Source: Thioploca sp.
Lineage (GTDB): Bacteria; Pseudomonadota; Gammaproteobacteria; Beggiatoales; Beggiatoaceae
DNA length: 64,000 nt
Direction of reading: 5' to 3'
Assembly (NCBI GenBank): GCA_030627235.1
Contig: DAOUSL010000002.1
Coordinates: forward strand, 366 to 64,365
This document shows positions 18,277 through 55,871 of this stretch, piece after piece (within the stretch, counting starts at the first letter, position 1; every line of letters starts with the position of its first letter). The notes beneath the pieces were generated by a model. The model was not told the DNA's origin. It saw only the letters and a list, made by a program, of their open reading frames with translations, and made no database searches. The position numbers and the translations under genes are program-made.

Positions 18277-18291
18277 CCTGGATAATATTTG

Positions 18292-20310
18292 ATGAATAAT
18301 ATGATTTACATGAATTTTGTTGAATTTATTTTCTTTTTGCTATCTTTAGGGCTGGTATTTCTTGTCGCTTTAAAAAATTTAAACTCCATCATTAAGAGTC
18401 TAGCAGTTACTATATTAGTAATACCCATTTTATATTTATCTATAGAAGGAACCACTCAATTTTTAACCACTGATGAGGCATATATATTTACAGAAGTCAT
18501 AAATATACACAATTCAGGTATGGAGCAGTGGTATATGTCTGCCAATCGTACTTCTGATGCAGTTATAGGTACTTTTTTGAGTTTATTTCAAAAGTATACT
18601 CATTATGGAAGGATAATGGACTCAAATGAACTAATTATGTTCAGTAAGGCGGTCCGTTGGTTTGTTGGTTTTTTAATTATTATTGCGATATATGGATTAC
18701 TCAATAAATACTACATTGCTGAAAATCAGAGAGTTTCCTATTTTATTATTTATTTTTATTCTGTGCTTTCTTTGCCAGTCAGTCTTATTGCCCTGAAAAT
18801 TGCTAATTACGATCTCCTTTCTATGTTACTTGGAACATTGGCAATCATTCTACTCTTAAGGGCACTTCAAATAAAAAGTGATAGACACGCCTTAGTGGGG
18901 ATTATAATCAGCTTATTAGCCACACAAGAAAAACTTATTGCTTATCCCATATTAGCATTTTCATTGATTATTTTTACTTACCTAAAACTTGAACAAACTG
19001 AAAATAGGAATTATAAAACCTCTTTTTATTATTCATTTTACGCCATTTTCATCGCTTTTTTGACCAGTTTGACGACATTTTTAATTGTGGCAATGGCAGC
19101 AAGAAATGGTCATATTCCCCACATCAGTTTTTATGATGTCATTGTTCCAATAGTAGGTGCTTCTGCTAGCATCATAAGAAGACTTATAGTAGGTGGTGAT
19201 TTTTCGGAAACAATTCTCCCCCCTTCTTTCTTGTTAATATTATTGACTGGCTTTATTATCAGTTATGTGTCTTTGGTCTTAATTAAAATTAAACCTTGGT
19301 TGATAAACTTATTTTTTCCTTGGTTGAAAGGGAATATGAGATTGATAAGTATAATAACTATTTTTATGGTATTTTTAGTAGGGGTTGTTGGTACATATTC
19401 AATAGAAACCGTTTTTGCTAGTCTATTTCTTCCTGCTCAAGAAGGACAATATGTACCCCCCTATTCATTTAATAACAATGCTTTCTATTATGATGCTACC
19501 AGTAAGTTTGAATATTTCATTTATTCTATTGCTCATGCTTACGCCATTTTTACCAATAGTATTCCCTCTATTTACCTTGTCATATTGTTATTAGTATGGA
19601 ATCAAAGACATAAGAGAGAATGCTTTTCTGGTTGGGGAATCATATTATTACTAGTGTTGGTAATGCCATTAGTTTATGCACTTACTTATACTCCGATGCA
19701 ACCTAGATATTTTAATCTGTTTTTATTTACACTAATTTTGATTATTGGAATAGAAATGAGTAAAATTATGAGTTACTATAAAAATATCATCCAGTTAGTT
19801 TTAGTTTCTGTATTTGTCGTTTCTCTGCTCATTGAAATATTACCTTTTCGACCTATTTTCGGTGCCTTTAGACCAATATGGAGTCATTCATTCAATGCAT
19901 TGCCAAGTAAAGGAACTATCCAGCCTATTTATTGGGGGTGGGGAGATTCACTATTTCTCGCAGGAAAAAAAATAGAAAAAATGATGGCTGAAGGTCAAAT
20001 CAAAAATGATAAAGTCCGTCTTTACTTTCCTTATTTTGGAACATGGATTAATTCAAATAAGGCTATAACAATTTATAACTTTTATACAATTGGGGATTGG
20101 GAAGCTAAACATTTTGATACTTCCTTTGTCAAACTTATGCACTTTACAAAATCAGATTATTTATTGGTTAATAATGGAATAATTGTTAGGGGATTAATCC
20201 CTTTTTTTAAGGATATAAAACCCATTTTCACAATATCATATCGTGGTTATACTCAAGCATGGGTATATAGAGGGGATCAGATTAAACATAAGTTTAAAAA
20301 GCTTCGATAA
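18292..20310 (+). CDS. large polytopic membrane protein, possible GT-C-type glycosyltransferase or polymerase
   Basis: Translation is strongly hydrophobic with many predicted TM helices (not counted); glycan-locus context. No specific family recognised. Confidence 0.5.
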   Translation: MNNMIYMNFVEFIFFLLSLGLVFLVALKNLNSIIKSLAVTILVIPILYLSIEGTTQFLTTDEAYIFTEVINIHNSGMEQWYMSANRTSDAVIGTFLSLFQKYTHYGRIMDSNELIMFSKAVRWFVGFLIIIAIYGLLNKYYIAENQRVSYFIIYFYSVLSLPVSLIALKIANYDLLSMLLGTLAIILLLRALQIKSDRHALVGIIISLLATQEKLIAYPILAFSLIIFTYLKLEQTENRNYKTSFYYSFYAIFIAFLTSLTTFLIVAMAARNGHIPHISFYDVIVPIVGASASIIRRLIVGGDFSETILPPSFLLILLTGFIISYVSLVLIKIKPWLINLFFPWLKGNMRLISIITIFMVFLVGVVGTYSIETVFASLFLPAQEGQYVPPYSFNNNAFYYDATSKFEYFIYSIAHAYAIFTNSIPSIYLVILLLVWNQRHKRECFSGWGIILLLVLVMPLVYALTYTPMQPRYFNLFLFTLILIIGIEMSKIMSYYKNIIQLVLVSVFVVSLLIEILPFRPIFGAFRPIWSHSFNALPSKGTIQPIYWGWGDSLFLAGKKIEKMMAEGQIKNDKVRLYFPYFGTWINSNKAITIYNFYTIGDWEAKHFDTSFVKLMHFTKSDYLLVNNGIIVRGLIPFFKDIKPIFTISYRGYTQAWVYRGDQIKHKFKKLR

Positions 20311-20649: not shown

Positions 20650-22011
20650 ATGGGATTGACAACAATGACTCAATCTATTCCTTATTCAACTACTTTATTA
20701 GAACAAGAACTGCGTTCACAAATTTTTACAGCAGTTCAAACTTATTATAATTTTAAATTTCGTCCTCAGTCGTTCATACCTACTCAAACACCCATTCCAT
20801 CTTCTGGTAAAGTTGTTGGTAGCCAAGAAATCCAAAACATGGTGGAAGCCTCACTTGACGGCTGGCTCACTACTGGACGTTTTAATGAAGCATTTGAACA
20901 AAAATTAGCCAAATTTCTTGGAGTTAAGCATGTATTTACCACCAACTCAGGTTCGTCAGCCAACCTCTTAGCTTTTTCGGCTTTGACTTCACCAAAACTG
21001 GGTGAAAGAAGATTGAAACCGGGAAATGAAGTTATTAGTGTTGCAGCAGCTTTTCCTACTACTGTCAATCCTATTCTTCAACATGGCATGATTCCAGTTT
21101 TTGTGGATGTCGATATTCCTACTTATAATATAGATACTACACTGATTGAAGCAGCTATCTCTGCTAAAACTAAAGCTATCATGTTGGCACATAGTTTGGG
21201 TAATCCTTATAATCTTGATGAAGTGATGCGCATTGCTAAAAAACATAATCTGTGGCTTATTGAAGATTGTTGTGACGCACTGGGTTCAACTTATAATGGT
21301 AAACTGGTGGGAACATTTGGTGATATTGCGACACTTAGTTTTTATCCAGCACATCAAATTACAATGGGAGAAGGTGGAGCCGTTTTTACGAATAACACTC
21401 TTTTAAATCGTATTGCTGAGTCTTTTCGCGATTGGGGGCGTGATTGTTATTGTGAACCGGGTAAGGATAATACTTGTGGTAAACGTTTTGATCGGCAATT
21501 AGGTACGTTACCGGAAGGTTATGATCATAAATATACTTATTCACATTTAGGCTATAATCTCAAAATTAGTGATATGCAAGCAGCGGTGGGATTGGCACAA
21601 TTAGATAAATTGTCACACTTTGTTACTAAACGTCAAGAAAATTTTTGTTATCTCCGCGAACATTTAGCAAGTTTAGAAGAATTTTTGATTTTGCCAGAAG
21701 CTACGCTTAACAGTGAACCGTCTTGGTTTGGTTTTCCAATCACAATTAAAAAAGATGCAGGAAGAATACGAGTTGACTTGCTAAAATATTTGGATAAGTA
21801 TAAGATTGGTACTCGCCTATTATTTGCTGGTAATATTACTCGTCAACCGTATTTTCAGGATAGGCAATATCGTATCAGTGGGGAATTGATCAATACAGAG
21901 ATTATTATGAATGATACTTTTTGGATTGGGGTTTATCCGGGGCTGTCAGCAGAGATGCTTGACTACATAGTAAATAAGATGGAGGCATTTTTTGGAGTTG
22001 GTAGACATTAA
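20650..22011 (+). CDS. ddhC: CDP-6-deoxy-D-xylo-4-hexulose-3-dehydrase (E1)
   Basis: Near full-length colinearity with RfbH/DdhC as I remember it: [129 protein letters not shown]. Confidence 0.9.
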
Positions 22012-22043
22012 GTCATTATTGATTACTCGTTGCCAGAAATGAT

Positions 22044-22916
22044 ATGAATAAATACAGAGTTGCAATCCTTGGGTCAGGAAATATTGGAACAGATTTATTG
22101 GTAAAAGTTCAAAGATCGGAGAATTTAGAGTGTGTTGCCTTTATTGGAAGAAGCCGTGGTTCACGGGGAATGGCTAAAGCCCTTGAACTGGGAGTGAAAT
22201 TATCAGACCAAAGTATCGAATATGTTATTGACAACGCAAGTAAAATCGACCTCGTTTTTGATGCTACATCGGCAAAGGATCACATGGTGCATGCACCAAT
22301 CCTCAAGGAACTTGGCATCAGATGTATTGATCTTACTCCAGCCAAAATTGGACCAATGTGTGTTCCTTTAATTAATACAGAGGAATGCATGGATAATATG
22401 AATATCAATATGGTTACATGTGGTGGCCAAGCATCGATACCCATTGCAGTAGCACTTGCAAGGACACACAAGAATATTGAGTATATTGAGGTGGTGTCTA
22501 GTATTGCCTCAAAAAGTGCTGGACCAGCAACCCGCTCCAATCTTGATGAATACATTAAAACTACCGAAAGAGGCGTAAAACACTTCTCCTGTGCAAAAAA
22601 AACCAAGGCAATACTGATTCTTAATCCTGCTATACCTTATATTGATATGATGACTACAATCCTCGCTAAAATAAATGAACCTAATTTAGAGTTGCTAAAA
22701 ATAGAGCTTGCCTCGCTGTTGGAAAGAGTCCAGTCTTATGTACCAGGATACAAACTAATTTTGGGACCACTATTTGAAAATGGGAGGATCGTTGTAATAT
22801 TAAGAGTGCAAGGTTTTGGTGACTATTTGCCAAAATATGCTGGTAATCTTGATATTATTAATTGTGCTGCAATTGCGATAGCTGAAGAATATGCCAAGGC
22901 GGTGAAGAATGAGTAA
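22044..22916 (+). CDS. acetaldehyde dehydrogenase (acetylating), DmpF/MhpF family
   Basis: RVAILGSGNIGTDLLVKV NAD motif and the active-site segment MVTCGGQASIP; length about 290 aa. Confidence 0.8.
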   Translation: MNKYRVAILGSGNIGTDLLVKVQRSENLECVAFIGRSRGSRGMAKALELGVKLSDQSIEYVIDNASKIDLVFDATSAKDHMVHAPILKELGIRCIDLTPAKIGPMCVPLINTEECMDNMNINMVTCGGQASIPIAVALARTHKNIEYIEVVSSIASKSAGPATRSNLDEYIKTTERGVKHFSCAKKTKAILILNPAIPYIDMMTTILAKINEPNLELLKIELASLLERVQSYVPGYKLILGPLFENGRIVVILRVQGFGDYLPKYAGNLDIINCAAIAIAEEYAKAVKNE

Positions 22917-23931
22917 TAATAAGCAAAAAATACTTATTAGTGATTCAACACTTCGGGATGGAAATCATGCGGTATTGCATCAACTCACTGAACAACAAAT
23001 CGCTACATATTGTACAGCTGCTAATTCTGCAGGTGTACCTATTGTTGAGGTTGGGCATGGTAATGGTCTAGGTGCATCATCACTTCAGGTGGGTGAAGCT
23101 GCTGTAGATGACCTGACTATGCTTACTATTGCTCGTAAGCATCTCAAGAATTCACGGCTTGGTATTCATGCAATACCTGGTTTTGCTACCATAGAACGTG
23201 ATCTTAAGCCTGCTATCAATTGTGGCGTGGATGTATTTCGCATCGCTGCTCACTGTACCGAGGCAGATATTACAGAACGCCATATTCGGTTCTGCCGTAT
23301 GGAGGGAAAAATAGTTTTTGGTGTACTTATGATGAGTCACATGGTGGAGAAGGAGATTCTTGCTGATGAAGCCCGTAAGATGCAGAATTATGGTGCAGAG
23401 GGAATTATTCTAATGGATTCTGCGGGCAACTACCTACCGAATGATGTGAAAGAGAAAGTGAGTTTTCTTAAAGAAAATCTCAAAGTGTCAGTGGGCTTTC
23501 ATTCACATAATAATCTTGGAATGGGTATTGCAAATTCAGTGGCTGCTGTGGAAGCAGGAGCTGCTATCATTGATGGCTGTGCAAGGGGTTTTGGTGCAGG
23601 TGCGGGAAATGCCCAGTTAGAAGTACTGGTGGCGGTACTTGAACGGATGGGATATAACTTGGGCATTGACTTATACAAATTACTTGATGCAAGTGATCTA
23701 GCCGAAAGAGAGTTGATGGAAAAGATGCCCACAGTCGGATCCACAAGTATTGTCAGTGGACTGTCAGGAGTTTTTTCAGGTTACCTCAAGCCCGTTAACC
23801 GTATAGCAAAAGAATTTGATATTGATCCGCGTGACCTTTTTTTTGAGTTAGGTAGACAAAAAGTGGTGGCAGGCCAAGAGGATAGAATTATTGAAATAGC
23901 TGCTGAACTCTCTAATTCTGGGAAAAATTAA
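22909..23931 (+). CDS. 4-hydroxy-2-oxovalerate aldolase-like (DmpG/MhpE family, HMGL-like)
   Basis: DSTLRDGNHAV; HSHNNLGMGIANSVAAVEAGAAIIDGCARGFGAGAGNAQLEVLVAVLERMG. The start overlaps the upstream dehydrogenase gene by 8 nt. Confidence 0.8.
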   Translation: MSNNKQKILISDSTLRDGNHAVLHQLTEQQIATYCTAANSAGVPIVEVGHGNGLGASSLQVGEAAVDDLTMLTIARKHLKNSRLGIHAIPGFATIERDLKPAINCGVDVFRIAAHCTEADITERHIRFCRMEGKIVFGVLMMSHMVEKEILADEARKMQNYGAEGIILMDSAGNYLPNDVKEKVSFLKENLKVSVGFHSHNNLGMGIANSVAAVEAGAAIIDGCARGFGAGAGNAQLEVLVAVLERMGYNLGIDLYKLLDASDLAERELMEKMPTVGSTSIVSGLSGVFSGYLKPVNRIAKEFDIDPRDLFFELGRQKVVAGQEDRIIEIAAELSNSGKN

Positions 23932-23935
23932 TGTG

Positions 23936-24991
23936 ATGAAGAAAGAACAGAAAAAATTGATGACTGATGATTGCGAACGTGTTTATTCGGAAGTTTCCGG
24001 CAAACTCGACGTTCTGTCAGGGGCGACCTTGCTGATTACTGGGGGGTCGGGGTTTATGGGAAGTTGGTTATGTGAGATGGTGTATTACATGAACGAAATC
24101 CACAAAATGGATATTCGTCTTTTCGTCATAGCACGTGATCATGAACGTTTTGAATCTCGTCTTCCACATGTAGCAAGTGCCAAAAATATCGAATTTATAT
24201 GCACCGATATTCGCAATGTCAGTGAATTCCCTCGTGAAGTTAATTATATCATCCATGCTGCAGCGAACCCAGATAGTCGCTTCCACTCATCTAGACCTTT
24301 TGAAACGATGTCTACAATCGCCGAAGGAACTGGAGCAGTTTTCAGAGCCGCATCCTTGGTGTCAGATTTACGTAATATTATTAATGCTGGTTCCAGTGCG
24401 GTATATTCATCGGAACCGAATAACAGAGAGAAGTTCTCAGAGATATCACCGGGATTACCTCTCAATAGCAAAGTGTCCAATTCTTTTTCCGAAGCGAACC
24501 GTTATTCTGAAACTCTGTGTTCAGCAGCACGAAATGAATTACGTTTGCCAATAGTTACTATTAGGCCATTTACTTTCTGCGGAGCATATCAGGATATCGA
24601 TTCTCCATGGGCACTTAATAATTTTATCAATGATGCTATGTGCAAGCGTCGTATTCGTATTCATGGTGATGGTGAAACGTTCCGTAGCTATATGTATGGG
24701 GCTGATTTAGCTGTTTGGGTTCTTATTATCATGCTACATGCGAGAAGCGGACAAATCTATAATGTTGGAAATAGTAATGGTTTTTCGCTCAGAGAGATTG
24801 CCGAAAAGGTCGCCAGTTGCTTTCAGCCAGCACCTAGTGTGTTACTGAATACCTCTCTCACTGGTGATATTAATCAATCAACATTGCTACCAGATGTGAC
24901 AAAGGCTGAAAAGGAATTTGGACTTAAACAATATACCAATATTGATACTGCCATTCAAAAAACAATACAATGGTATAAAAATGCTTGTTGA
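23936..24991 (+). CDS. NAD-dependent epimerase/dehydratase family (extended SDR), candidate ketosugar reductase
   Basis: LLITGGSGFMGSWL Rossmann motif; IIHAAA; Y..SK-like region (YSETLC). Starts 2-5 nt after the aldolase stop. Confidence 0.7.
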   Translation: MKKEQKKLMTDDCERVYSEVSGKLDVLSGATLLITGGSGFMGSWLCEMVYYMNEIHKMDIRLFVIARDHERFESRLPHVASAKNIEFICTDIRNVSEFPREVNYIIHAAANPDSRFHSSRPFETMSTIAEGTGAVFRAASLVSDLRNIINAGSSAVYSSEPNNREKFSEISPGLPLNSKVSNSFSEANRYSETLCSAARNELRLPIVTIRPFTFCGAYQDIDSPWALNNFINDAMCKRRIRIHGDGETFRSYMYGADLAVWVLIIMLHARSGQIYNVGNSNGFSLREIAEKVASCFQPAPSVLLNTSLTGDINQSTLLPDVTKAEKEFGLKQYTNIDTAIQKTIQWYKNAC

Positions 24992-25022
24992 TAGAAAATT
25001 CAATAGAAGATGCCCATAAATT

Positions 25023-26846
25023 ATGTCTAAGAAAGTAAAAGTTAGCGATGAAATCGCAGAATTTCTTAAAAAGCAAGAAATCCGACATGTATTTGGGATT
25101 GTAGGTTCAGCTATTTCCCATATATTCGATTCAATACATAGACTTGGTTATACACAGATTGTTTGTGTTCATCATGAACAAGCAGCCACTATGGCAATGC
25201 AGACTTATTTTAGGATGACCGGTAAAATTACGGCTGCATTGGTGACTGCAGGAGGTGGTAGTTCAAATGCCATTACGGGTGTTTTGAGTGCATGGGCTGA
25301 TTCATTACCTGGAATTATTATCTCAGGACAGGAGAACACTCGATTTATCAAGTCAATGAATAATATGCGGATGTGGGGAATTCAAGGTTTTGACAGTACG
25401 TCAATGGTTGACAAGATAACAAAATACGCTGTTCGGGTGATGGAACCAAAACAGTCCGTGTATGAACTAGAAAAAGCCTATCATATTGCTGGCCATGGAC
25501 GACCTGGACCTGTCTGGATTGATTATCCGATGGATATTCAGGGAAGCAGTATATCTGCTAACGAATTTGATCATTATTCCCCTCAAGCCGATAAGTTGAT
25601 GGCTGTTTCAGACTCAACTACAAAAATTGTTCTGGAGATGATTGGTGTATCTCGGCGTCCAGTTTTTTGGTTAGGTCACGGTATTAGGCTGTCTGATGCT
25701 ATGGGGAAAATCTATTTTCTTTTGGAAAAATTCCCATTTCCAACTCTGGTAACTTGGGCTGGCATAGATATACTTGATGATGGTCACTCACTAAATTTCG
25801 GTAGAGCTGGTGTCTATGGTAATCGTGTAGCAAACTTTGTGGTTCAAAATTCTGATCTGGTAATTGCGATTGGTAACCGATTCGCTATTCCAATGATTGG
25901 ATATGAGCATTCTGAATTCGCACGTGAAGCAAAAATTATTCAAGTGGATATTGATAAACTTGAGCTGGAAAAGACAAAAGACATGGTTGATCTTGGTATT
26001 GAATCTGATGCAGGAGCTTTTATTGAGAAATTGCTTGTGATGTCTAATAACTCTGAATTCAAGTTGCCACAATTTCAAGATTGGCTAACTATTTGTAATG
26101 GTTATAGGGAGCGATATCCGTATATTGGCCCTGAACACGCAGATAGGAATGGTGCTATAAATTCCTATCGTTTTATTGACCAACTAAGTGAGTATTTTAA
26201 ACAAGATCAGGTAATTACCACTGATATGGGTACAGCACTTCTGTCTGGTCATCAGGCTATACGTGTACGTGGTGAACAACGGCTAATGACTTCAACCGGT
26301 TTAGGAGAAATGGGTTATGGTTTACCTGCTGCAATAGGTGCTTCATTTGCTCGTAATAAAGGAGAAGTGATGTGTCTAAATTGTGATGGAGGGATGATGA
26401 TGAACCTCCAAGAGCTTCAGACAATTGTGCATCATCAACTACCCATAAAACTTTTTATTTTTAATAACGATGGTTATTTGATGATCAAGCATACACAGAA
26501 AAATTTATTTCAAGGACTCTATACTGCCTCTGATAAAGAAAGTGGTGTATCGTGTCCTAATTTTTCAAGGATTTCTGCTGCTTTTGAGATTCCGTATTAC
26601 GCGATAAAAACTTGGGATGATTTTGCAAAAGTTATACCACAGGTTCAAAGAGCGAAATGTCCAGTGTTCTGTGAGGTGTTCATGGATCCAGAACAGTATT
26701 CTTATCCTAAGCAATCATTGGCAGTTCGCCAAGACGGGTCAATCGTTTCGCCTCCTTTGGAAGATATGTCCCCATTATTGCCTAGGAATGTGTTTAAACG
26801 TGAAATGCTTATAAGTTTGCATCCGAAATCAGAAAGTCTTAACTGA
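25023..26846 (+). CDS. thiamine diphosphate-dependent enzyme, acetolactate-synthase-large-subunit-like (YerE-like)
   Basis: VFGIVGSAISHIFDS, TAGGGSSNAITGV, GLGEMGYGLPAAIGA, NCDGGMMMNLQELQT...NNDGY (ThDP-binding motif). Confidence 0.8.
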   Translation: MSKKVKVSDEIAEFLKKQEIRHVFGIVGSAISHIFDSIHRLGYTQIVCVHHEQAATMAMQTYFRMTGKITAALVTAGGGSSNAITGVLSAWADSLPGIIISGQENTRFIKSMNNMRMWGIQGFDSTSMVDKITKYAVRVMEPKQSVYELEKAYHIAGHGRPGPVWIDYPMDIQGSSISANEFDHYSPQADKLMAVSDSTTKIVLEMIGVSRRPVFWLGHGIRLSDAMGKIYFLLEKFPFPTLVTWAGIDILDDGHSLNFGRAGVYGNRVANFVVQNSDLVIAIGNRFAIPMIGYEHSEFAREAKIIQVDIDKLELEKTKDMVDLGIESDAGAFIEKLLVMSNNSEFKLPQFQDWLTICNGYRERYPYIGPEHADRNGAINSYRFIDQLSEYFKQDQVITTDMGTALLSGHQAIRVRGEQRLMTSTGLGEMGYGLPAAIGASFARNKGEVMCLNCDGGMMMNLQELQTIVHHQLPIKLFIFNNDGYLMIKHTQKNLFQGLYTASDKESGVSCPNFSRISAAFEIPYYAIKTWDDFAKVIPQVQRAKCPVFCEVFMDPEQYSYPKQSLAVRQDGSIVSPPLEDMSPLLPRNVFKREMLISLHPKSESLN

Positions 26847-27247: not shown

Positions 27248-28291
27248 TTGTGCCAAATTATCAATGAGGATATCAATAAAATAATTGAAGCTGACTTGCC
27301 TTGGCAGGAATTAAGTGGTAAAACCGTTCTGATAACGGGAGCTTCAGGACTTCTACCTGCATATTTAGTAGAAACACTACTCCATTTAAATAAAAAACAA
27401 TTTTATAAAAAAGTTCATGTTATTGGAATTGTTAAAAATCAAAAGTATGCAAGAAACAAATTTATGCATCACAAGAATAATGAATATCTGAATTTGTTGA
27501 AATCAGATGTTAATGATTTAATACAAATTGACAGCAAAATAGATATTATTATCCATGCTGCTAGTCATGCAAGCCCAAAATATTATGCGATAGATCCAGT
27601 TGGTACATTATTACCAAATATAACTGGAACTAAAAATCTTCTTGAACTTGGTGTGAAAAAGAAAATAAAGTCTTTTTTGTTTTTTAGTAGTGGAGAAGTG
27701 TATGGAAAAGCTACAGATGTTTCTTTAGGAACAGGTGAATCATCATACGGTTGGCTCGATCCAATGGATGTACGTTCATGCTATGCAGAAAGTAAACGGA
27801 TGGGAGAAACAATGTGTGTAGCATGGGGAAAACAATATGGTTTCGATGTTAAAGTAGTACGACCATTTCACACCTATGGCCCCGGAATGAAGTTAGATGA
27901 TGGACGAGTATTTGCAGATTTTGTATCTAATATTGTGAATGGTGAAGATATTGTGATGAAAAGTGATGGTTCGCATAAAAGGCCATTTTGCTATATTTCT
28001 GATGCGACAGTTGGTTTTTTGACAGTATTGTTAAAGGGAGAATCTGCAAATGCATATAATATCGCCAATCCAATGCAAAATGTAAGTATTAAAACTTTAG
28101 CAGAAATGCTAATTGACCTTTTTCCAGAAAAAAGATTGAAGGTTAAAAGTGCTACTGTAAATCAGTCGCAATATATGCGTAGTCCAATTACTGAACAACT
28201 ACCAGATATTTCTAAATTAATAAAGTTGGGTTGGATGCCAAAAATAGATATTCGTGAAGGATTTTATCGTACTATTAGGAGCTATTTATGA
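27248..28291 (+). CDS. NAD-dependent epimerase/dehydratase family (extended SDR)
   Basis: VLITGASGLLPAYL; IIHAASHASP; YAESKRMGE (YxxxK). TTG start as in the ORF track; start uncertain. Confidence 0.7.
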   Translation: MCQIINEDINKIIEADLPWQELSGKTVLITGASGLLPAYLVETLLHLNKKQFYKKVHVIGIVKNQKYARNKFMHHKNNEYLNLLKSDVNDLIQIDSKIDIIIHAASHASPKYYAIDPVGTLLPNITGTKNLLELGVKKKIKSFLFFSSGEVYGKATDVSLGTGESSYGWLDPMDVRSCYAESKRMGETMCVAWGKQYGFDVKVVRPFHTYGPGMKLDDGRVFADFVSNIVNGEDIVMKSDGSHKRPFCYISDATVGFLTVLLKGESANAYNIANPMQNVSIKTLAEMLIDLFPEKRLKVKSATVNQSQYMRSPITEQLPDISKLIKLGWMPKIDIREGFYRTIRSYL

Positions 28292-29208
28292 ATATTGAAG
28301 AATTGATGTTGCAATACGAATTAGGTAATATGGCAAAAGCAGAGTTTATAAAACTCATGCATACTCACCACCGTATGCTGTTTGACTATAGTAAATTTAT
28401 ATGTGATAGAGATATACAGAAGATAGAGATAACAGATAATAGCGTGGTTATGACATCACGTAAACTTGGAATCAAAATTATTTGTGATGAACAAGACTAC
28501 AGAATTGCACCCGTAGAGATATTGAATTTCCAAGAATACGAAAAACAAGATTCTGATATGATTTTCAGGCTTGTTAATGATAAAGATACACTATTAGATA
28601 TAGGAGCAAATATTGGTTGGTATTCTATTGGATTATCAAAAGCTAAAAATAACCTGAATATTCATGCCTTTGAACCAATTCCAAAAACCTATGAATATTT
28701 AGTTGCAAACGTTAGATTAAATGGACTTACCAATATCCATATACATAAACATGGTTTGTCAAACGAAACCTCTGAAGTACCTTTTTATTATTATCCTGAA
28801 GGTTCTGGTAATGCTTCTATGTCAAATCTAGCGGCTAATATGAATTCAATAGAAATAAAATTACAAGTTATACCACTTGATTTTTTTGTAAAGAGACATG
28901 GAATTGATAAGGTAGATTTTATAAAATGTGATGTAGAGGGTGCAGAATTATTAGTTTTTCAAGGTGGTCGAGACACTATTCAAAGAGATAAACCCATCGT
29001 GTTTTCTGAAATATTGAGAAAATGGTCTGCAAAATTTGGTTATCATCCCAATGATATTATCAGTTTTTTTACTGAATTGGGATATGGATGCTTCACAGTT
29101 AAAGAAAAAAAACTATCTAGGTTTTTGAAAGTGGACGAAAACACTATTGATACTAATTACTTTTTTCTTCACGAAGGTGCTCATAAACAGATAATTGACA
29201 GTTACTAA
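28288..29208 (+). CDS. FkbM-family methyltransferase
   Basis: LLDIGANIGWYSI; HAFEPIPKTYEYLVANVRLNGL; IKCDVEGAELLVFQG. Confidence 0.75.
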   Translation: MNIEELMLQYELGNMAKAEFIKLMHTHHRMLFDYSKFICDRDIQKIEITDNSVVMTSRKLGIKIICDEQDYRIAPVEILNFQEYEKQDSDMIFRLVNDKDTLLDIGANIGWYSIGLSKAKNNLNIHAFEPIPKTYEYLVANVRLNGLTNIHIHKHGLSNETSEVPFYYYPEGSGNASMSNLAANMNSIEIKLQVIPLDFFVKRHGIDKVDFIKCDVEGAELLVFQGGRDTIQRDKPIVFSEILRKWSAKFGYHPNDIISFFTELGYGCFTVKEKKLSRFLKVDENTIDTNYFFLHEGAHKQIIDSY

Positions 29209-29688
29209 ATTAAGAGACTTACTTAACACTCCAATGAGTTCATTATCAATAGTTTGAGTGTAATGTTGTGGTAATCCTGTTGCTTATCGTAATAAAGTGC
29301 GATAAACTTACTTGGTAGACATAATCTTACTGAATGTCAGATTGATTATGTTTAAGGCTGTTAAATATATAGGCTCTTTGGGATTTTACGGGATAATTAA
29401 ATCCAGTAAAAATAATAAGTTACATGCCACTGCTTTTTCAATGGAACCTATTTTTATGAAATTCCTTTAAAATAATTAACTTAATATACAGGAAAAAAAT
29501 AGCGATTATTCCAAACGTATAGTAATATCGTTCCCAGTGCATATCCTTACATATCAATATAGATACGTTGAAACCAAAGGTTTATATTTAAAATACCATA
29601 ACATAATTTAATACCCTCGCAAAAAGCTTGAGTATTAAATTAAGCCATTATAAAAGATAAGAAAATTCTTAAAGATTGTTTGCAGTAA

Positions 29689-29853
29689 ATTCGTAATCAA
29701 GATTTAGTTGATATTTTACTTGTTGATGATGGTTCAACAGACAAAACAAAGGAAATTGCAACTTTTTATTCGAGAGGATTACAAGACATTAATTTTATAG
29801 TCCAAAAATCCATCAATTCGTTGTACTATTGGAGTTTAAATAATGACATTTAA
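29689..29853 (+). pseudogene. relic of a GT2 glycosyltransferase N-terminus
   Basis: Open fragment IRNQDLVDILLVDDGSTDKTKEIATFYSRGLQDINFIV... carries the GT2 DDGS(T)D signature but has no start and no body. It runs into the start of the next gene. Confidence 0.45.
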
Positions 29854-30940
29854 TTTTAACCAGATAGATAAAAAGTTTTTAACCATAGGAATCCCAACCT
29901 ATAATAGAGTTCATACTTTACAAAGACTTCTGCGTTCTTTGGAAGAACTACAGTCGCCATGGTTGGAATTGGGGATTATTACTATACTTATTAGTGATAA
30001 CCATTCTACGGATAGCACTGGTGATTTTATAAAAAATCATAAACTGTCAAGTTATATTGATTACTCTATAAACGACAAAAATATTGGAGCCGGTAAGAAT
30101 ATGTTAAAAATCACCAATATGTTTGACTCTAATTATTTGATGATGATTGGTGATGATGATATTATTCTATTAGAAAATTTAGTTAAGTTAATTCAAGAGT
30201 TATGGTTAGAAAAACCAGATTATGCTTTAATCAATTTAAAAAATATAACGGGTTTTAATACCATTAATTCTAACGAACAAGGCATCTTTCAAAATGTCAT
30301 TCAAAATAGTCTTGTTAATGTACTTGGTTATTTTGGTTGTATTATAATAAGCGATAAATTAAGAAATTATTTGTCATTAAATGGCTGTATTTTTGGTATT
30401 GATACGTATTGGCCCAGCATAGAGTTATTTTTTAAAATTCCTTCTTCATTTAAAGGCATATTGGTTCTTAATCCTCCTATCCAATTGATAGCAGATGCGG
30501 TCCGCTGGGAAGTGGAAGATTGGTTTGAGATTAGCCGAGTGCACAATTTGAAATTTTTAAATAAGCTATACACTCAAAGCGTATTAACAGAAAATGATTA
30601 TGATGCACTCGTTCTTTCTGTGACTAAAAAACAAGCTTATATTGTTATATTTGCTTTTTTGTTTGGTAAAAATTTTCAAAAGACCAAAATATCTGTTAAA
30701 TACATACTTGCTCATTTTTATGAAAAAATTTCTAGCACAGATAAAATAGTGTTGTTATCCATTTCTCGTTTTCCTATAATTTTTAACCAATTATTAAGGC
30801 CATTAAATATCTTTTTTTACTATATTATTTATAAAAAATTTTATGTTGGGTTTCTGAATCTCTTCCGAAAAGAGAAAAAAAAGGATATGATTGCTCCTTT
30901 TATTAACAATAATAAACCCAACATACTTTTTCAAATATAA
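29843..30940 (+). CDS. glycosyltransferase family 2-like protein with hydrophobic C-terminal part
   Basis: LTIGIPTYNRVHTLQRLLRSL; LISDNHSTDSTGDF; MIGDDD. Confidence 0.65.
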   Translation: MTFNFNQIDKKFLTIGIPTYNRVHTLQRLLRSLEELQSPWLELGIITILISDNHSTDSTGDFIKNHKLSSYIDYSINDKNIGAGKNMLKITNMFDSNYLMMIGDDDIILLENLVKLIQELWLEKPDYALINLKNITGFNTINSNEQGIFQNVIQNSLVNVLGYFGCIIISDKLRNYLSLNGCIFGIDTYWPSIELFFKIPSSFKGILVLNPPIQLIADAVRWEVEDWFEISRVHNLKFLNKLYTQSVLTENDYDALVLSVTKKQAYIVIFAFLFGKNFQKTKISVKYILAHFYEKISSTDKIVLLSISRFPIIFNQLLRPLNIFFYYIIYKKFYVGFLNLFRKEKKKDMIAPFINNNKPNILFQI

Positions 30941-30967: not shown

Positions 30968-31735
30968 ATGAAAGCAGTCATATTAGCCGGTGGTTTAGGC
31001 ACTCGTTTAGCAGAAGAAACTATCTTAAAACCTAAACCAATGGTAGAAATTGGTGGAAAACCAATCCTGTGGCATATCATGAAAATTTACTCTACTCATG
31101 GTATCAATGACTTTATCATCTGTTTAGGATATAAAGGCTATATCATCAAAGAATACTTTTCCAATTATTTTCTCCACATGTCTGACGTAACAATTGACAT
31201 GCCACACAACAAAATCGAAGTGCATCAAAACCGTGTAGAACCATGGCGAATCACCTTAGTTGATACCGGTGAAAATACTATGACGGGCGGACGCTTAAAG
31301 AAGGTACACCAATATCTTGACGAAGAAGACTTCTGTCTCACTTATGGCGATGGTGTGGGAAATATAGACATTACCCAATTAATCACTTTTCATAAAGAAC
31401 AAGGTACATTAGGTACATTGACAGCAATGCAACCATTAGGTCGTTTTGGTGCGTTAAAATTGCATAATAATAAAGTTGTTCAATTTCAGGAAAAACCTCA
31501 AGAAGAAGGCGGAAAAATAAATGGTGGTTTTTTTGTACTTTCTCCTAAAGTGATAGACTATATTGACGGCGATAACACGGTATGGGAACGCGAACCAATG
31601 GAACGTTTAGCACATGAAAATCAAATGTCTGCCTATCTTCATAAGGGATTCTGGCAACCGATGGATGCCCTGCGCGACAAAAATTATCTGGAAGAACTTT
31701 GGGCAACTGGAAAAGCACCTTGGAAAATATGGTAA
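30968..31735 (+). CDS. ddhA: glucose-1-phosphate cytidylyltransferase
   Basis: [40 protein letters not shown]; TYGDGV; GGFFVL; [10 protein letters not shown]. Confidence 0.9.
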
Positions 31736-32802
31736 ATTCATCCTTCTGGAAAAACAAGCAAATCTTGATAACCGGACATACTGGATTTAAAGGCAGTTGG
31801 CTATCGCTTTGGTTACACTCAATGGAGGCCAATATCATTGGCTACTCGCTCCCTCCCCCAACTAATCCCAATCTTTTTGAAACTATCCATTTGGCTGATA
31901 AAATAACCAGTATTATCGGCGATGTGCGTGACTTTGAACATCTACATACTGTGATCGCAAACTATAAACCGGAAATTATTTTCCATTTAGCAGCACAACC
32001 ACTCGTTAGATATTCATATAGCCACCCTATTGAAACTTATGCAACTAATGTAATGGGTACTGTGCATTTATTGGAAGCTGTCAGACAAATTGGTAGCGTC
32101 AAGGTAATTATTAATGTCACCAGTGATAAATGCTATCAAAATCGTGAATGGATTTGGGGATACCGTGAAAACGAACCAATGGGAGGGTATGATCCTTATA
32201 GCAGCAGTAAAGGATGTTCTGAATTAGTCACCGCCGCATTTCAAAATTCCTTTTTTAATACGACAGACTTTGCTAAACATGGTACTGCGTTAGCGTCAGT
32301 ACGTGCAGGTAATGTAATTGGTGGTGGCGACTGGGCCGAAGATAGGCTAATTCCAGACATTATACATGCTTTTATGGCAGGAAAACCGGTTATCATTCGT
32401 AATTCTCAAGCAATCAGACCTTGGCAACATGTTTTAGAACCACTCAGTGGATATTTACTCTTAGCTCAAAAATTATGGGAAGATGGTTCCCAATATGCTG
32501 AAGGTTGGAATTTCGGTCCCAATGAAAACGATGCTAAACCGGTAGGTTGGATAGTAGATTATCTTACCAAAATATGGGGAGAAAATGTTAGTTGGAAAAA
32601 GGATATTCAAACAAAACATCCACACGAAGCACATTATTTAAAATTAGATTGTTCAAAAGCTAAATCTAAGCTGGATTGGCATCCAAAGTGGGACATTGAA
32701 ACAGCATTAAATATTACTGTGGATTGGTACAAAGCCTATCAACAAGAAAAAGATATGTATTCTTTAATGAAAGAACAAATTCGTGTTTATTCGCATACTT
32801 AA
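31729..32802 (+). CDS. ddhB: CDP-glucose 4,6-dehydratase
   Basis: [18 protein letters not shown]; [11 protein letters not shown]; [11 protein letters not shown]; [17 protein letters not shown]. The ATG at 31729 (ATGGTAA overlap with the ddhA stop) is preferred over 31699. Confidence 0.9.
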
Positions 32803-32847: not shown

Positions 32848-33792
32848 ATGAAAAATGATACAACTGTTGAAGAAATTATTAATATTCTAACTGACCCAGA
32901 ATTTCCTGATAAAAATATGTGGATAGAAGAAAATTTTGTCGTTTCCAGCAAAAATAAATATTGCATAGATAACACTGGAATGGTAGATTTTCTACATATT
33001 GACAGGGAAAATGTAACAACAGACTCCAAAAATGTTTCTATTTTGTTTAAATTAAATAATTGGTATAACAATGAATTTGAACAAAGAATAGCACATACAA
33101 TTTTTGCTGGGGGGGGGGTTGGCCTGTTAGTTTTAAATAAAAAAATCCGTTTATGGTTGCAACAGGTAGAAGGTATTTTTTTGGATGTAGGATGTGGTGA
33201 TCAGAAATGGAAAAAATATATGCCAGACAATATCAAATATGTGCCTATTGATTATTTGCCAGCGGTAGAAAGCTGCCCTTGGAAAGACTCATATCCACTG
33301 GTTAATGCTGACGCATTAAAACTTCCGTTTAAAAACGGGACTGTGGATGCTATATTGAATGTTTTTGTTCTTGAACATGTAAAATCTCCTGAAATTCTCA
33401 TAAAAGAGTTTTCTCGTGTTTTAAAATCTGGAGGAGTATTATTACTTGCTGGACCTGGTGATCTTTTGATGACTCATGGAGAACCGCACAATTATTTTAA
33501 TATGACAAAATATGCTTACCAACTGTTGTTAGAAAAATTTGAGATGGAAATTGTTGAGGAATATTTTCCTTCTAAATTTTGGATGTCTATATTCAATGCA
33601 GTTTATTCCAAAATTGTTAGGAATGATTTTTACAATCGTACTCCGTTGCATAAATTGTTTCAAATTCCAGTCTTCATAGTATCTCTTATTTTATCTCCTA
33701 TTTTTAATATTATTGCATATATCTTAGATTTAATTACACCTTTTAACAAAAAAGGTTATAGTGCATACATGGTACTTGCTCGAAAAAAATGA
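32848..33792 (+). CDS. class I SAM-dependent methyltransferase with hydrophobic C-terminus; carries a G10 tract
   Basis: FLDVGCGDQKW; DAILNVFVLEHV; LKSGGVLLL. The G10 run at 33109-33118 encodes GGG and is in frame. Confidence 0.7.
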   Translation: MKNDTTVEEIINILTDPEFPDKNMWIEENFVVSSKNKYCIDNTGMVDFLHIDRENVTTDSKNVSILFKLNNWYNNEFEQRIAHTIFAGGGVGLLVLNKKIRLWLQQVEGIFLDVGCGDQKWKKYMPDNIKYVPIDYLPAVESCPWKDSYPLVNADALKLPFKNGTVDAILNVFVLEHVKSPEILIKEFSRVLKSGGVLLLAGPGDLLMTHGEPHNYFNMTKYAYQLLLEKFEMEIVEEYFPSKFWMSIFNAVYSKIVRNDFYNRTPLHKLFQIPVFIVSLILSPIFNIIAYILDLITPFNKKGYSAYMVLARKK

Positions 33793-34766
33793 GAAAAACA
33801 TTAATATTTGTACTAAAAGTTACTTTTTCCATTGGTGTAATTATATTTATATTTTATAATTACATCACTATTAATGATTTTATCCAAACAGTACAAAACA
33901 TTAATTATTTTCTGTTACCATTTTTGATTCTATTGGTTTATTTTACAAGATTACTGATAGCCTACCAAACAAAAATTAGTTTAGTTCCTTTCAATATTCA
34001 AACCAGCACTTTTAACATTTTCAAAATACACCTCATTTCCACATTTTATTCACTGGTTCTATCAAGCGATATTATTGCGGGTGGTGTCAGTTGGCACTTA
34101 CTTTCTAAAGACAATGGCAGACGTGCTGAAGTCGCCAGTGTTATTGTTTATTTAAGAATTTTAAATCTGATTACCCTCCTGCCTTTCGTATTATTAGGTA
34201 TTTATCTTGAACCAAAATTAAAAGCGTACAATATTCAACCCTATGTACTTATATTTGGGTTATTATTACTGATAATGCTCCTACCTTTTTTTTGGCACAA
34301 ACTAACTCTTCTCACGGAATCAACTCTTAACTACCTTATTTCACTCATTCCAATCAAAAAATTATCAAAACGTTTGTTAGAGGCTAACGACAATGTATGG
34401 AACTCAGTCAAAATAAGCCAAGCAATGCCTCTTAACTTTACTTTTAAGGTAATTACGTTATCTCTTATATCACAAATACTCGCTATCATTTTTATGTACT
34501 ATACATTAGAAATGGTTAATATTCATCTACCCTTTTCTGTGGCAACTTGGTTAATAGCATTAGCTATAATCATTGCCATACTGCCCTTAACAATAGGCGG
34601 TATTGGGGTACGAGATATTAGCTTCGTATTTATTTTAAACGAACTTTATAGTGTGCCAGCAGAAGCATCCTTACTTGCTTCAACAGTTATTTTATTGATA
34701 GGTTCAATTTTCTTTGGTGCAATTTTAGGTGGGTATTATGCGATAACTTTTGGAAAAAGAAAGTAG
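33789..34766 (+). CDS. UPF0104 / lysyl-PG-synthase-TM-like (flippase-like) membrane protein
   Basis: Polytopic membrane protein. LPLTIGGIGVRD near the C-terminus is typical of this family. Confidence 0.55.
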   Translation: MRKTLIFVLKVTFSIGVIIFIFYNYITINDFIQTVQNINYFLLPFLILLVYFTRLLIAYQTKISLVPFNIQTSTFNIFKIHLISTFYSLVLSSDIIAGGVSWHLLSKDNGRRAEVASVIVYLRILNLITLLPFVLLGIYLEPKLKAYNIQPYVLIFGLLLLIMLLPFFWHKLTLLTESTLNYLISLIPIKKLSKRLLEANDNVWNSVKISQAMPLNFTFKVITLSLISQILAIIFMYYTLEMVNIHLPFSVATWLIALAIIIAILPLTIGGIGVRDISFVFILNELYSVPAEASLLASTVILLIGSIFFGAILGGYYAITFGKRK

Positions 34767-42326: not shown

Positions 42327-44015
42327 TTAAATTTTTTTTACTTCCCATACTTTTATTGCTTGTTCTGATAACCATAATTGATAATTATTAAGATTTTGTA
42401 AATTCCAATCATCATATTCAGCAATCTTTTTAGCTAAGTTGAAAGAAGTCTTTGAATAAAACTTTTTTTTATCAGTAAAATTTGACCGTTTTAATTCATC
42501 TTTTTCAAGTAAAATAACATTTCCTAATCTGTCTTGAATATCATTAACACCTTCTCCAAAATATTCATCCCAATGTTGTTCAGGACGGTATGGGCAAATA
42601 TGTTCTAATGTTGTTTTTAAATAATCTGTTTGATTACCCAAGAAAATTTCAATTTCGGATAATAAAAATCGAATTTTTTTTGATGATTGGCGACTAGGCA
42701 TTTTGTGAAATTCAAAAGCATTAGAAAAAGTTTTATCATCAGGATACAGTTTTTTAAATTCCTCACCATTTTTAATATGGCTAGCCCTTTTATAATCACC
42801 TTCATAAATTTTAATGGCTATTTGATTATAAGTTTTTTCTTGTTCATTTGGTGAGTGATGACAAATAACGTTATATCTAATTGATAAAACATATAAATAT
42901 TTTATTATTTTAATAAATTCTTCAGCTGTAAATTTACTAAAGGCAGCCATAAAAATAGTTAGTGGCTGTTTAATATTGAATAAACGAAGACCTTCAAGAA
43001 ATTTTTTAGCTTCTCTATATTTTACCTCATCTAGGTCAGACCACCATTCATCATTAGGATTTAATAATGAAGCGTAAATAGGTGCATATTTATCTAATGA
43101 GTTTAAGTAAGCATATGCACTTTCAGGAGTATTAGCCATTTTTATAATGGATGAAAACAGCTCTTTTTTGGTTACTAATTTCTGTTGAAAATTATGATGA
43201 TATCGAATAAAATCAGTAAAATTAGCTTCTCCCAATTGAGAGACAACAACTGACCAATTTTCATCTAATTCATTTAACGTTTCATCTATTACATCATTAT
43301 TTTTGGTAACTACTGAAAAAATATAATTTTTTAATAAATCTGGAGTTGATAATTGAACACCTCTGGCATTTAGAGTTTCAAAAACTTTATAGGCATTTAA
43401 TTCATCTTGAACTACAATTTTAGTAAAAATCATACCAGAAGTTAATTTTTCAATAAACTTAGCAACTTGACTACCTGAATCACCCATAGACTTATTGGTA
43501 TAAAATTGAAAAGCCTTATGTAATAATTTGTTAGTTAAGGTTAAACCACGTCGATTAGGTGCATCTAAATTTGAACAAATATATTTAAAATTCTGACTAT
43601 TATTCCGGTTAAGCGATAATTTATTATCAACTCGTAAAGAAATAGTATTCAGCGAACCAATAAATCGGTCATATAAAGCATCTAAACGTTTTTTATTGGC
43701 TTCTTGTTCTTGATTTAATTCAATTAATAATTTAATTTGTCTCATTGCTGCTAAAACTATTAAAGATAATGTAACTAAACGTTGTTGTCCATCAATCACT
43801 TCAAAATCATGTTGCCCTTTACGTTGTAATACTACATAACCCATATAATGATAATGCTCTTCTTCAAGTGTTTCGATATCAGCCCATAGTTCTTCCCAAT
43901 GTTCTTGTTTCCAAGCATAATCACGTTGAAATCTTGGAACTTTATACCTAACACCATTTCCTATTAACTCTTGAAAGGTCTGGTTTGTTGGTTCCATTAA
44001 CATAAAATTTGGCAT
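42327..44015 (-). CDS. GmrSD-like DUF262 + DUF1524 protein (putative modification-dependent / type IV restriction nuclease)
   Basis: N-terminal YKVPRFQRDYAW and DGQQRL (DUF262, ParB-like NTPase). C-terminal LEHICP...RLGNVILLEKDELKRSN (DUF1524 His-Me finger). Confidence 0.8.
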   Translation of the reverse strand: MPNFMLMEPTNQTFQELIGNGVRYKVPRFQRDYAWKQEHWEELWADIETLEEEHYHYMGYVVLQRKGQHDFEVIDGQQRLVTLSLIVLAAMRQIKLLIELNQEQEANKKRLDALYDRFIGSLNTISLRVDNKLSLNRNNSQNFKYICSNLDAPNRRGLTLTNKLLHKAFQFYTNKSMGDSGSQVAKFIEKLTSGMIFTKIVVQDELNAYKVFETLNARGVQLSTPDLLKNYIFSVVTKNNDVIDETLNELDENWSVVVSQLGEANFTDFIRYHHNFQQKLVTKKELFSSIIKMANTPESAYAYLNSLDKYAPIYASLLNPNDEWWSDLDEVKYREAKKFLEGLRLFNIKQPLTIFMAAFSKFTAEEFIKIIKYLYVLSIRYNVICHHSPNEQEKTYNQIAIKIYEGDYKRASHIKNGEEFKKLYPDDKTFSNAFEFHKMPSRQSSKKIRFLLSEIEIFLGNQTDYLKTTLEHICPYRPEQHWDEYFGEGVNDIQDRLGNVILLEKDELKRSNFTDKKKFYSKTSFNLAKKIAEYDDWNLQNLNNYQLWLSEQAIKVWEVKKI

Positions 44016-47001: not shown

Positions 47002-47031
47002 ATTTAATTCTCCTGTTTTAAATTATAATAC

Positions 47032-47748: not shown

Positions 47749-47780
47749 AAAATAATCTCAACTAGAGGTAACAAAAAAAA

Positions 47781-55563: not shown

Positions 55564-55871
55564 TATATAAATCCTTATAAGCTTTTTCACATCAGTATAT
55601 CATATTTTTCTTATATTATTTAGAATGCTTTAATTCATTAATATTACTTATAAAATATAGATTTTGAGCCTGTCTTTGGAATGATAAAAATAGTATATTA
55701 TAAATATTTATGGATTGATAATTAAAACAAATATTATTCTAAATTAAACTATTAATGTCTATAAAATGGTAAAATTAAAAATAGAGTTACAAACCAATAT
55801 AGTAACCATATGTTATTGCTTAACATTAATTCTATATAAAAGACAAAAAATCTTAGAAAGACAAAAATTAT

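Follow-up and report, generated by a model that had tools for sequence, protein, structure and literature searches.

A 64,000-nt stretch of genomic DNA from a marine member of the Beggiatoaceae (the window) carries on its + strand a tightly packed block of five open reading frames (ORFs), coding for an RfbH/DdhC-type 3-dehydrase (20650-22011), an acylating acetaldehyde dehydrogenase (22044-22916), a class II pyruvate aldolase (22909-23931), an extended short-chain dehydrogenase/reductase (SDR; 23933-24991, referred to as F1) and a thiamine diphosphate (ThDP)-dependent carboligase (25023-26846). With a probability of about 70%, this block forms the central part of a pathway of the erwiniose type, which would make an acyl-branched 3,6-dideoxyhexose, and lies within a surface-glycan locus. 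The module as such is a widespread, horizontally mobile cassette.

The pathway type has been described for Pectobacterium atrosepticum SCRI1043, in which the erwiniose cluster codes for the ThDP enzyme ErwE, the reductase ErwF, the acetaldehyde dehydrogenase ErwJ and the BphI-like aldolase ErwI and adjoins the genes for CDP-4-keto-3,6-dideoxyglucose (Steitz et al., 2022; PMC9306805). In the published scheme acetaldehyde is made from acetyl-CoA by ErwJ and joined to pyruvate by ErwI, giving (R)-4-hydroxy-2-oxopentanoate; ErwE removes the carboxyl group of this acid and transfers the remaining C4 unit to the keto group at C-4 of the sugar, after which ErwF reduces the branch (PMC9306805). The scheme has in part been tested in vitro, with ErwE accepting 4-hydroxy-2-oxopentanoate in a (4R)-selective manner, turning over 4-hydroxy-2-oxohexanoate as well and rejecting pyruvate, on which latter ground the authors excluded an aldol extension after branching (PMC9306805). 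An earlier note on the window had been aware of no characterised pathway with this combination of enzymes and had proposed that the aldolase/dehydrogenase pair supplies or channels a C2/C3 donor or acts directly on a sugar aldehyde. The combination is characterised, the ErwE/F/I/J cluster having been described in 2022 (PMC9306805), and the proposal on the pair has to give way to a scheme that builds a C5 keto acid and leaves a C4 branch after decarboxylation.

The carboligase of the window is a three-domain ThDP enzyme of the YerE-like, JanthE (CDG-motif) type. In family searches with Pfam and NCBIfam models and their curated cutoffs, the top acetolactate synthase (ALS) model, TIGR00118, scored 349.5 bits vs a cutoff of 538, and the remaining ALS models all fell short of theirs as well. 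The best solved structures, 8rph, 8rpi and 8rpj, reached 764 bits, while the next ones, ALS-labelled chains, did not exceed 264 bits, so that the enzyme groups with the YerE-like proteins, as had been proposed, and not with ALS. 8rph represents JanthE, a YerE-like enzyme of Janthinobacterium sp. HH01 (PMC12188165), to which the window protein is 55.7% identical over 607 amino acids (residues 3-606 aligning to JanthE 5-611). The canonical GDG motif for ThDP binding is replaced by CDG (N453-C454-D455-G456 in the window protein); the 8rph alignment has CLNCDGGMMMNLQELQT in both the window protein and JanthE, NCDGG is found in 71 of 75 ORFs of the ThDP family and the cofactor-activating glutamate in HHEQ is invariant. 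Four of the five published active-site hotspots of JanthE (Y268, P293, Y297 and K567) are identical in the window enzyme, the fifth, V121, being replaced by isoleucine. As JanthE takes 4-hydroxy-2-oxovalerate as a substrate and ketones as acceptors (PMC12188165), the window enzyme would, by analogy, attach a decarboxylated keto acid to C-4 of a CDP-4-keto sugar.

The native locus of JanthE, which was reached from Pseudomonas loci by way of a homologue of the SDR encoded after their ThDP gene, extends this likeness from the enzyme to its genomic context. This Janthinobacterium sp. HH01 locus (L090; AMWD01000002.1, 4133431-4154372) has the gene order ddhA-ddhB-rfbH-JanthE-SDR-dehydrogenase-aldolase-F1-GT2, the last gene coding for a glycosyltransferase (GT) of family 2, and its ThDP gene matches the 8rph sequence with 100% identity. 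Identity between window and L090 proteins amounts to 68% for DdhA, 58% for DdhB, 70% for RfbH, 56% for the dehydrogenase, 64% for the aldolase, 34% for F1 and 56% for JanthE. The shared gene set and these identities make the window module orthologous to the native JanthE cluster, and from its context JanthE may be expected to act naturally on CDP-4-keto-3,6-dideoxyglucose and 4-hydroxy-2-oxopentanoate. The JanthE cluster differs from the window in its order (A-B-H-E-SDR-J-I-F1, with the letters of the Ddh, RfbH and Erw counterparts), in an extra SDR, of our cluster 12, directly after JanthE, and in being devoid of a second SDR (F2) and an FkbM methyltransferase that are both present in the window; a gene for an E3 reductase (DdhD) is nearby in neither locus.

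The dehydrogenase, which is ErwJ/DmpF/BphJ-like, matches TIGR03215 with 375 bits vs a cutoff of 282, finds its best solved structures in 7z3s (282 bits) and DmpF (1nvm_B, 237 bits) and retains the TCGGQA active-site cysteine motif; by analogy it would run reductively, from acetyl-CoA to acetaldehyde. Its gene overlaps the aldolase gene by 8 nt, which suggests translational coupling. The ErwI/DmpG/BphI-like aldolase (TIGR03217, 385 bits vs a cutoff of 286) contains the DmpG communication domain (PF07836, 84 bits) and conserves the catalytic Arg, Asp and His and the two metal-binding His, all of which are invariant in the set of aldolases from sugar loci. It is 40% identical to DmpG (the 43% reported for ErwI and BphI is a pairwise similarity and hence a different measure for a different pair; PMC9306805). 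The window pair has the fold, catalytic residues, metal ligands and communication domain in common with the DmpFG, BphIJ, MhpEF and HsaFG complexes of aromatic and steroid meta-cleavage, and like these its genes appear to be translationally coupled, which suggests a channelling complex. In contrast to these complexes, the window pair would run synthetically, in the context of sugar biosynthesis.

The pocket of the aldolase bears on the stereochemistry of the donor. BphI is strictly (4S)-specific; Y290F abolishes its stereocontrol, the double variants L87N/Y290F and L87W/Y290F are (4R)-specific and L89A admits longer aldehydes to the pocket (PMC3962088). The positions of BphI Leu87 and Tyr290 are occupied by His and Phe in 63 of 63 sugar-locus aldolases, that of the window included, and by Leu and Tyr in all four solved catabolic enzymes (DmpG, 8ih7, HsaF (4jn6) and 4lrs), while the position of Leu89 holds Ile in 54 and Met in 9 of the 63. 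Where Leu/Tyr enforces the (4S) product in BphI, the His/Phe pair of the window aldolase therefore predicts the opposite, and the sugar-locus aldolases would make, from a short aldehyde, the (4R) acid that ErwE needs. In a library-wide search, in which 150 aldolase representatives were compared, the His/Phe type ranks nearest to the window enzyme and the Leu/Tyr type lower, with some other near relatives carrying different non-Tyr variants. As a separate observation, 78 of these 150 representatives (P0281-P0393) have Phe and His at the positions of BphI 87 and 290 and form a DmpG-like group of their own; most of those inspected are about 620-710 amino acids long, roughly double the normal length, with the extra length possibly being a fusion.

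The genes for the sugar acceptor are represented by rfbH/ddhC, the first gene of the block, and by ddhA (glucose-1-phosphate cytidylyltransferase; 30968-31735, +; TIGR02623, 464 bits vs a cutoff of 300) and ddhB (CDP-glucose 4,6-dehydratase; 31699-32802, +; TIGR02622, 541 bits vs a cutoff of 278), which had been placed about 4 kb downstream of the block and lie at a distance of 4.1 kb. Translation of ddhB probably starts some codons after the TTG at 31699, as the TIGR02622 match begins only at residue 16. RfbH is assigned as CDP-6-deoxy-L-threo-D-glycero-4-hexulose 3-dehydrase (E1) of the pyridoxamine phosphate/[2Fe-2S] type by the equivalog NF011936 (749 bits vs a cutoff of 423). E1 enzymes are characterised by a His in place of the pyridoxal phosphate-binding lysine of aminotransferases and by a C-X57-C-X-C-X7-C iron-sulfur motif. 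In the window protein His235 (in SFYPAHQ) stands at the position of that lysine, and the cysteines follow the pattern C208-X57-C266-X-C268-X7-C276, which we take to be the [2Fe-2S] motif of Yersinia E1. A ColD-type, E3-independent dehydratase was considered for RfbH and rejected on account of this cysteine pattern.

With the E1 motif in place, RfbH should depend on electrons from a separate donor, whose gene would have to lie in another part of the genome. In agreement with what had been noted before, no E3/ddhD homologue was found in the window by tblastn with 23 E3-type proteins of related loci (best E ~0.1), nor did the 64 kb contain E3 remnants or a protein with Fer2, FAD_binding_6 or NAD_binding_1 domains, and those parts of the genome past either end of the window that could be searched gave no E3 either. 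Of the 80 related loci only 24 have an E3-type gene close by; its absence from the neighbourhood is the usual state among them, the Janthinobacterium HH01 locus being another example.

These 80 loci come from a survey restricted to one genome per species, in which the ThDP enzyme is 55-69% identical to that of the window and neighbours were counted within 10 kb. The dehydrogenase accompanies the ThDP gene in 73 and the aldolase in 72 of them, RfbH in 62, DdhA in 63 and DdhB in 61, an adjacency far beyond chance. Carriers are found among Bacteroidota, Beta- and Gammaproteobacteria, Leptospira, Legionella, Coxiellaceae and Francisella relatives, Armatimonadota and Omnitrophota, and the nearest of the 80 loci stems from an uncultured Francisella metagenome-assembled genome; plasmid-borne copies of the ThDP gene were not found at E <= 1e-80. 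The proposal that a DmpFG-type pair was recruited to provide the branch donor of a C-branched 3,6-dideoxyhexose gains support from this survey, in which 72-73 of 80 loci link the pair to genes of sugar synthesis; it does not belong to a catabolic operon.

Seven loci have neither dehydrogenase nor aldolase. Two of these are on short contigs, and five (L004, L005, L010, L037 and L049) are real exceptions with enough flanking sequence, combining a CDG-type ThDP enzyme and ddh genes with no aldolase/dehydrogenase pair within 10 kb; a further short contig stops just after the dehydrogenase gene. In L002 (9975-11656) transketolase-like genes lie beside the ThDP gene, with Transketolase_N identified in the one scanned. 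Both this locus and the five exceptions may employ different donor acids and attach different branches. The gene order is either J-I-F1-E, as in the window, or E-J-I-F1, and among the 73 loci with a dehydrogenase 64 have F1, its gene lying beside that of the aldolase. F1 is the sole accessory SDR in 24 loci, is joined by F2 and the methyltransferase in 17 (the window type), by F2 in 13 and by the cluster-12 SDR in 10; these cassette variants probably encode different sugars.

Horizontal acquisition, as suggested before, is consistent with the composition of the block together with this patchy distribution across phyla. G+C content is 37-42% in the five genes vs about 30% in their surroundings, confirming an impression gained by eye, and the difference is also seen at synonymous sites. 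G+C at third codon positions (GC3) is 0.24-0.33 in the block (mean 0.30) vs 0.18 +/- 0.04 in genes outside the glycan locus and is raised in ddhA (0.32) and ddhB (0.30) as well; a foreign origin of the block would fit these values. ORF calls and family searches agree with the earlier identification of the five genes and their coordinates. The packing is as tight as described, with spacings of 32 nt, an 8-nt overlap, 1 nt and 31 nt in gene order, and the gaps that bound the block measure 339 and 401 bp and contain only trivial ORFs of 29-50 amino acids. An assembly chimera was rejected as an origin of the arrangement, which is not an assembly artefact because identical DNA was recovered from three independent assemblies. 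The number of promoter-like sites equals chance expectation and that of terminator-like sites is modestly above it; Rfam matches were not found, and an ops/JUMPstart-like octamer is not enriched.

Taken along the pathway, DdhA and DdhB, by their family assignments, would provide CDP-4-keto-6-deoxyglucose, from which RfbH/E1 would remove the 3-hydroxyl group to give CDP-4-keto-3,6-dideoxyglucose with an electron donor encoded outside the window. In analogy to ErwJ and ErwI, the dehydrogenase would reduce acetyl-CoA to acetaldehyde and pass it to the coupled DmpG-type aldolase, which would condense it with pyruvate to 4-hydroxy-2-oxopentanoate, presumably the (4R) form judged by His/Phe. The JanthE-type enzyme would then decarboxylate this keto acid and couple the resulting C4 acyl anion to the sugar at its C-4 ketone, yielding a tertiary alcohol with a 3-hydroxybutanoyl branch; this chemistry is performed on model substrates by JanthE (PMC12188165) and ErwE (PMC9306805). 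Subsequently F1 would reduce the branch ketone, F2 and the FkbM methyltransferase would tailor the product further and a glycosyltransferase would place the sugar in the surface glycan.

The same four enzyme types and the same inferred donor logic are found in the erwiniose cluster. There, the gene order inferred from consecutive accession numbers is E-F-J-I, as opposed to J-I-F1-E in the window, which moreover has two SDRs of other orthogroups (F1 and F2) and an FkbM methyltransferase, has no E3 near its genes and belongs to a Beggiatoaceae host. The SDR type found at the ErwF position of Pseudomonas and Janthinobacterium loci does not occur in the window. Beyond erwiniose, the caryophyllose and gastriose clusters of Mycobacterium marinum and M. 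gastri (MMAR_2332, MyGE) follow the same unifying scheme of an aldolase-made hydroxylated 2-oxo acid, a ThDP carboligase, a reductase and the same deoxy-keto sugar, but differ in employing an aldolase reported to be of the aldolase/citrate-lyase family (MMAR_2331) and no acylating dehydrogenase, and in their longer C6-C7 branches. A 2025 review lists further YerE-like enzymes and cites an in-silico survey of >200 YerE-like clusters (PMC12247030).

Several points weigh against the assignment of the window to an erwiniose-type pathway. The canonical partner for 3-deoxygenation has no gene in the window or its reachable flanks. The window genes are putative counterparts of ErwE/F/I/J (WP_011093010-13), likened to them by published descriptions, Pectobacterium being absent from the 80 loci and from the homologue lists for the ThDP enzyme and the SDR at the ErwF position. 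The assignment of the reductase is ambiguous, since ErwF would by gene position correspond to the cluster-12 SDR, which is absent from the window. JanthE is promiscuous and accepts pyruvate also, and its physiological substrates are stated to be unidentified (PMC12188165). With respect to the aldolase, the pocket triplet reads His-Ala-Ile in the window enzyme, His-Val-Ile in most relatives and Leu-Leu-Leu in DmpG, so that an Ala stands at DmpG position 89 where most relatives have Val; the length of the branch follows the chain length of the aldehyde, and both are deduced from pocket residues only. Finally, the host is uncultured and the glycan a prediction from gene content.

The altered pocket touches directly on the possibility, which we regard as unlikely, that the same cassette builds a longer branch, with propionyl- or butyryl-CoA being reduced, a C6-C7 4-hydroxy-2-oxo acid being formed and a C5-C6 branch closer to that of caryophyllose or aurantose than to that of erwiniose being attached. 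BphI-type aldolases do accept propanal and longer aldehydes, and single changes in the pocket shift their preference (PMC3962088), and the window triplet departs from that of DmpG; yet the chain-limiting Leu89 position remains bulky in the sugar-locus aldolases, with Ile or Met, where opening of the pocket took L89A. Also against a longer branch, the dehydrogenase scores above the equivalog cutoff for acetaldehyde dehydrogenases. On the side of the carboligase, S. aurantia, which makes aurantose with its longer branch, has an enzyme of the same CDG family with 60% identity, and ErwE converts 4-hydroxy-2-oxohexanoate too (PMC9306805), but the sole worked-out case with a DmpFG-type pair yields a C4 branch (PMC9306805) and the mycobacterial clusters for long branches resort to another aldolase family.

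Still less probable is a yersiniose-type outcome, in which a C2 acetyl branch would derive from pyruvate and the pair would extend the branch by an aldol step or only clear acetaldehyde formed as a side product. The yersiniose A pathway of Yersinia pseudotuberculosis (DdhA-D, YerE, YerF) has in common with the window the acceptor CDP-4-keto-3,6-dideoxyglucose, the ThDP-dependent addition of an acyl anion to the C-4 ketone and the subsequent reduction by an SDR. Its YerE adds the C2 branch from pyruvate with no need for an aldolase/dehydrogenase pair, and the Yersinia cluster, unlike the window, carries ddhD (E3). YerE uses pyruvate on the same sugar acceptor (PMC9306805), as JanthE accepts pyruvate in vitro (PMC12188165), and the five related loci with a CDG-type ThDP enzyme and no pair within 10 kb would be compatible with such a donor; on the other hand, ErwE, from the only cluster of this kind tested, rejects pyruvate (PMC9306805). 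The window aldolase keeps all pyruvate- and metal-binding residues, which fits free pyruvate as the nucleophile, and a linkage in 72-73 of 80 loci combined with a specialised His/Phe pocket is hard to square with detoxification. That chance alone placed a remnant of a meta-cleavage operon (the pair) and an acetolactate synthase gene (the ThDP gene) beside the sugar genes is effectively refuted by the co-occurrence survey: dehydrogenase and aldolase do pass the cutoffs of catabolic NCBIfam equivalogs and the best named models of the ThDP enzyme are ALS, but the linkage to ThDP and ddh genes is conserved across phyla, the ALS models stay below their cutoffs with JanthE far ahead of the ALS-labelled chains, the aldolase lacks the catabolic Leu/Tyr pair and, as noted previously, no other meta-cleavage genes (dioxygenase, hydrolase, hydratase) are among the annotated ORFs of the window.

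Within the erwiniose-type pathway as the preferred reading, F1 represents the core NAD(P)H oxidoreductase of the cassette. It possesses a Pfam Epimerase domain and has no NCBIfam equivalog, and we consider it the candidate branch ketoreductase with an ErwF/YerF-type role. Downstream of the ThDP gene follow F2 (27248-28291, +), a second extended SDR of the UDP-glucuronate-decarboxylase-like fold family with human UXS1 as best structure (2b69, 149 bits), and an FkbM-family methyltransferase (28288-29208, +; PF05050 and TIGR01444). F2 would be an accessory tailoring enzyme, and the methyltransferase would methylate the branched sugar. F2 is present in 35 of the 80 loci at about 50% identity and the methyltransferase in 19 of 80, never without F2; in four loci the FkbM gene is located between the dehydrogenase and aldolase genes. 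In the closest metagenomic relatives (75-83% identical, with L082-L084 at 75%) RfbH, J-I-F1-E-F2, the methyltransferase and a GT2 gene 3' of it follow each other in window order. The conserved unit therefore exceeds the five genes to which it had been confined, as F2 and the FkbM methyltransferase belong to it. Upstream of the cassette in L082 (531-2135) a 534-amino acid product joins a PemK toxin domain and a DegT/RfbH domain, which is probably either a fusion created by gene calling or the result of a toxin gene having inserted where rfbH begins.

On a more tentative level, the variant with F1, F2 and FkbM, present in the window and 17 other loci, may make a chemically undescribed O-methylated and/or epimerised C4-branched 3,6-dideoxyhexose with an erwiniose-like octose skeleton, perhaps delivered via a polyprenyl-phosphate carrier and a GT-C-like membrane transferase, and the His/Phe aldolases may constitute a clade of class II pyruvate aldolases that are naturally (4R)-selective, evolution having matched the stereo-inversion engineered in BphI; this joint reading we hold to be possible rather than probable.

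The block resides in a surface-glycan locus of about 18 kb (16.3-34.8 kb), flanked by aroK-aroB and comEC, which further holds two more methyltransferases as well as GT4 and GT2 glycosyltransferases. The GT2 enzyme at 29843-30940 (+; PF00535), with a single C-terminal transmembrane-like segment (residues 256-274), is the candidate transferase for the CDP-sugar. When gene remnants were sought in three intergenic gaps, only a weak GT2-like trace 5' of this gene was found: at ~29665-29811, in the 634-bp gap upstream, a weak match (E ~1e-4) to N-terminal parts of related-locus proteins lies in a frame different from that of the GT2 gene and may be a decayed gene fragment. Upstream of the block, a 673-amino acid protein (18289-20310, +) combines about 11 transmembrane-like segments with a soluble domain of about 140 amino acids at its C-terminus and has no match in Pfam or NCBIfam, and a flippase-like PF03706 protein with seven transmembrane segments is encoded at 33789-34766. 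Together with the GT2 protein, these two resemble the polyprenyl-phosphate carrier/flippase/GT-C route of periplasmic glycosylation.

The host is a marine member of the Beggiatoaceae, judged from IspG: proteins named Candidatus Mar..., Thioploca and Ca. Halobeggiatoa share 93-94% identity with that of the window, and those of Ca. Parabeggiatoa, Beggiatoa and Ca. Thiomargarita 81-85%; the gene order ndk-rlmN-pilW-rodZ-ispG of the window is typical of Gammaproteobacteria. Directly adjoining ispG, the region 45346-48236 (-) codes for a 551-amino acid protein without known family, a KilA-N protein and a short AAA_23 fragment, and may be a small inserted element; GC skew is strongly negative (-0.27 to -0.37) over 47-49 kb, a stretch that includes most of ispG. 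Defence-type genes are located at 1792-3834 (AAA_21 ATPase with a RloB-like partner), 42327-44015 (GmrSD restriction endonuclease) and 54334-55590 (AAA_15/AAA_21 ATPase), and a DDE-family transposase gene at 56507-57565 (-). A DegT-type aminotransferase is encoded at the end of the window (61979-63142, -) and is followed just past it (L087:624-2459) by a PMT_2 (GT-C) protein and a LAB_N-domain protein, a set that looks like an Arn-like lipid A or glycan modification system.

Cumulatively, the functional idea of the earlier note stands in outline, a module for a C-branched 3,6-dideoxyhexose served by a recruited DmpFG-type pair, while the type of pathway had already been published, the donor logic is more specific than envisaged and the unit is larger. 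The logic of the pathway is not new, because the principle that a catabolic aldolase/dehydrogenase complex can be repurposed to make the branch of a rare cell-surface sugar was published in 2022. What is added is a cassette that is very widespread, now extending to large sulfur bacteria, to which the window adds a new lineage for a known pathway type, with a tailoring variant (F1, F2 and methyltransferase) next to variants with F1, with F1 and F2 and with F1 and the cluster-12 SDR. Genomic evidence furthermore places the crystallised biocatalyst JanthE in exactly such a cluster, and the invariant His/Phe signature of the aldolases predicts (4R) stereochemistry and could guide the mining of biocatalysts. 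Branched sugars are strong serological determinants, and predictions of this kind could therefore help to interpret lipopolysaccharide diversity.

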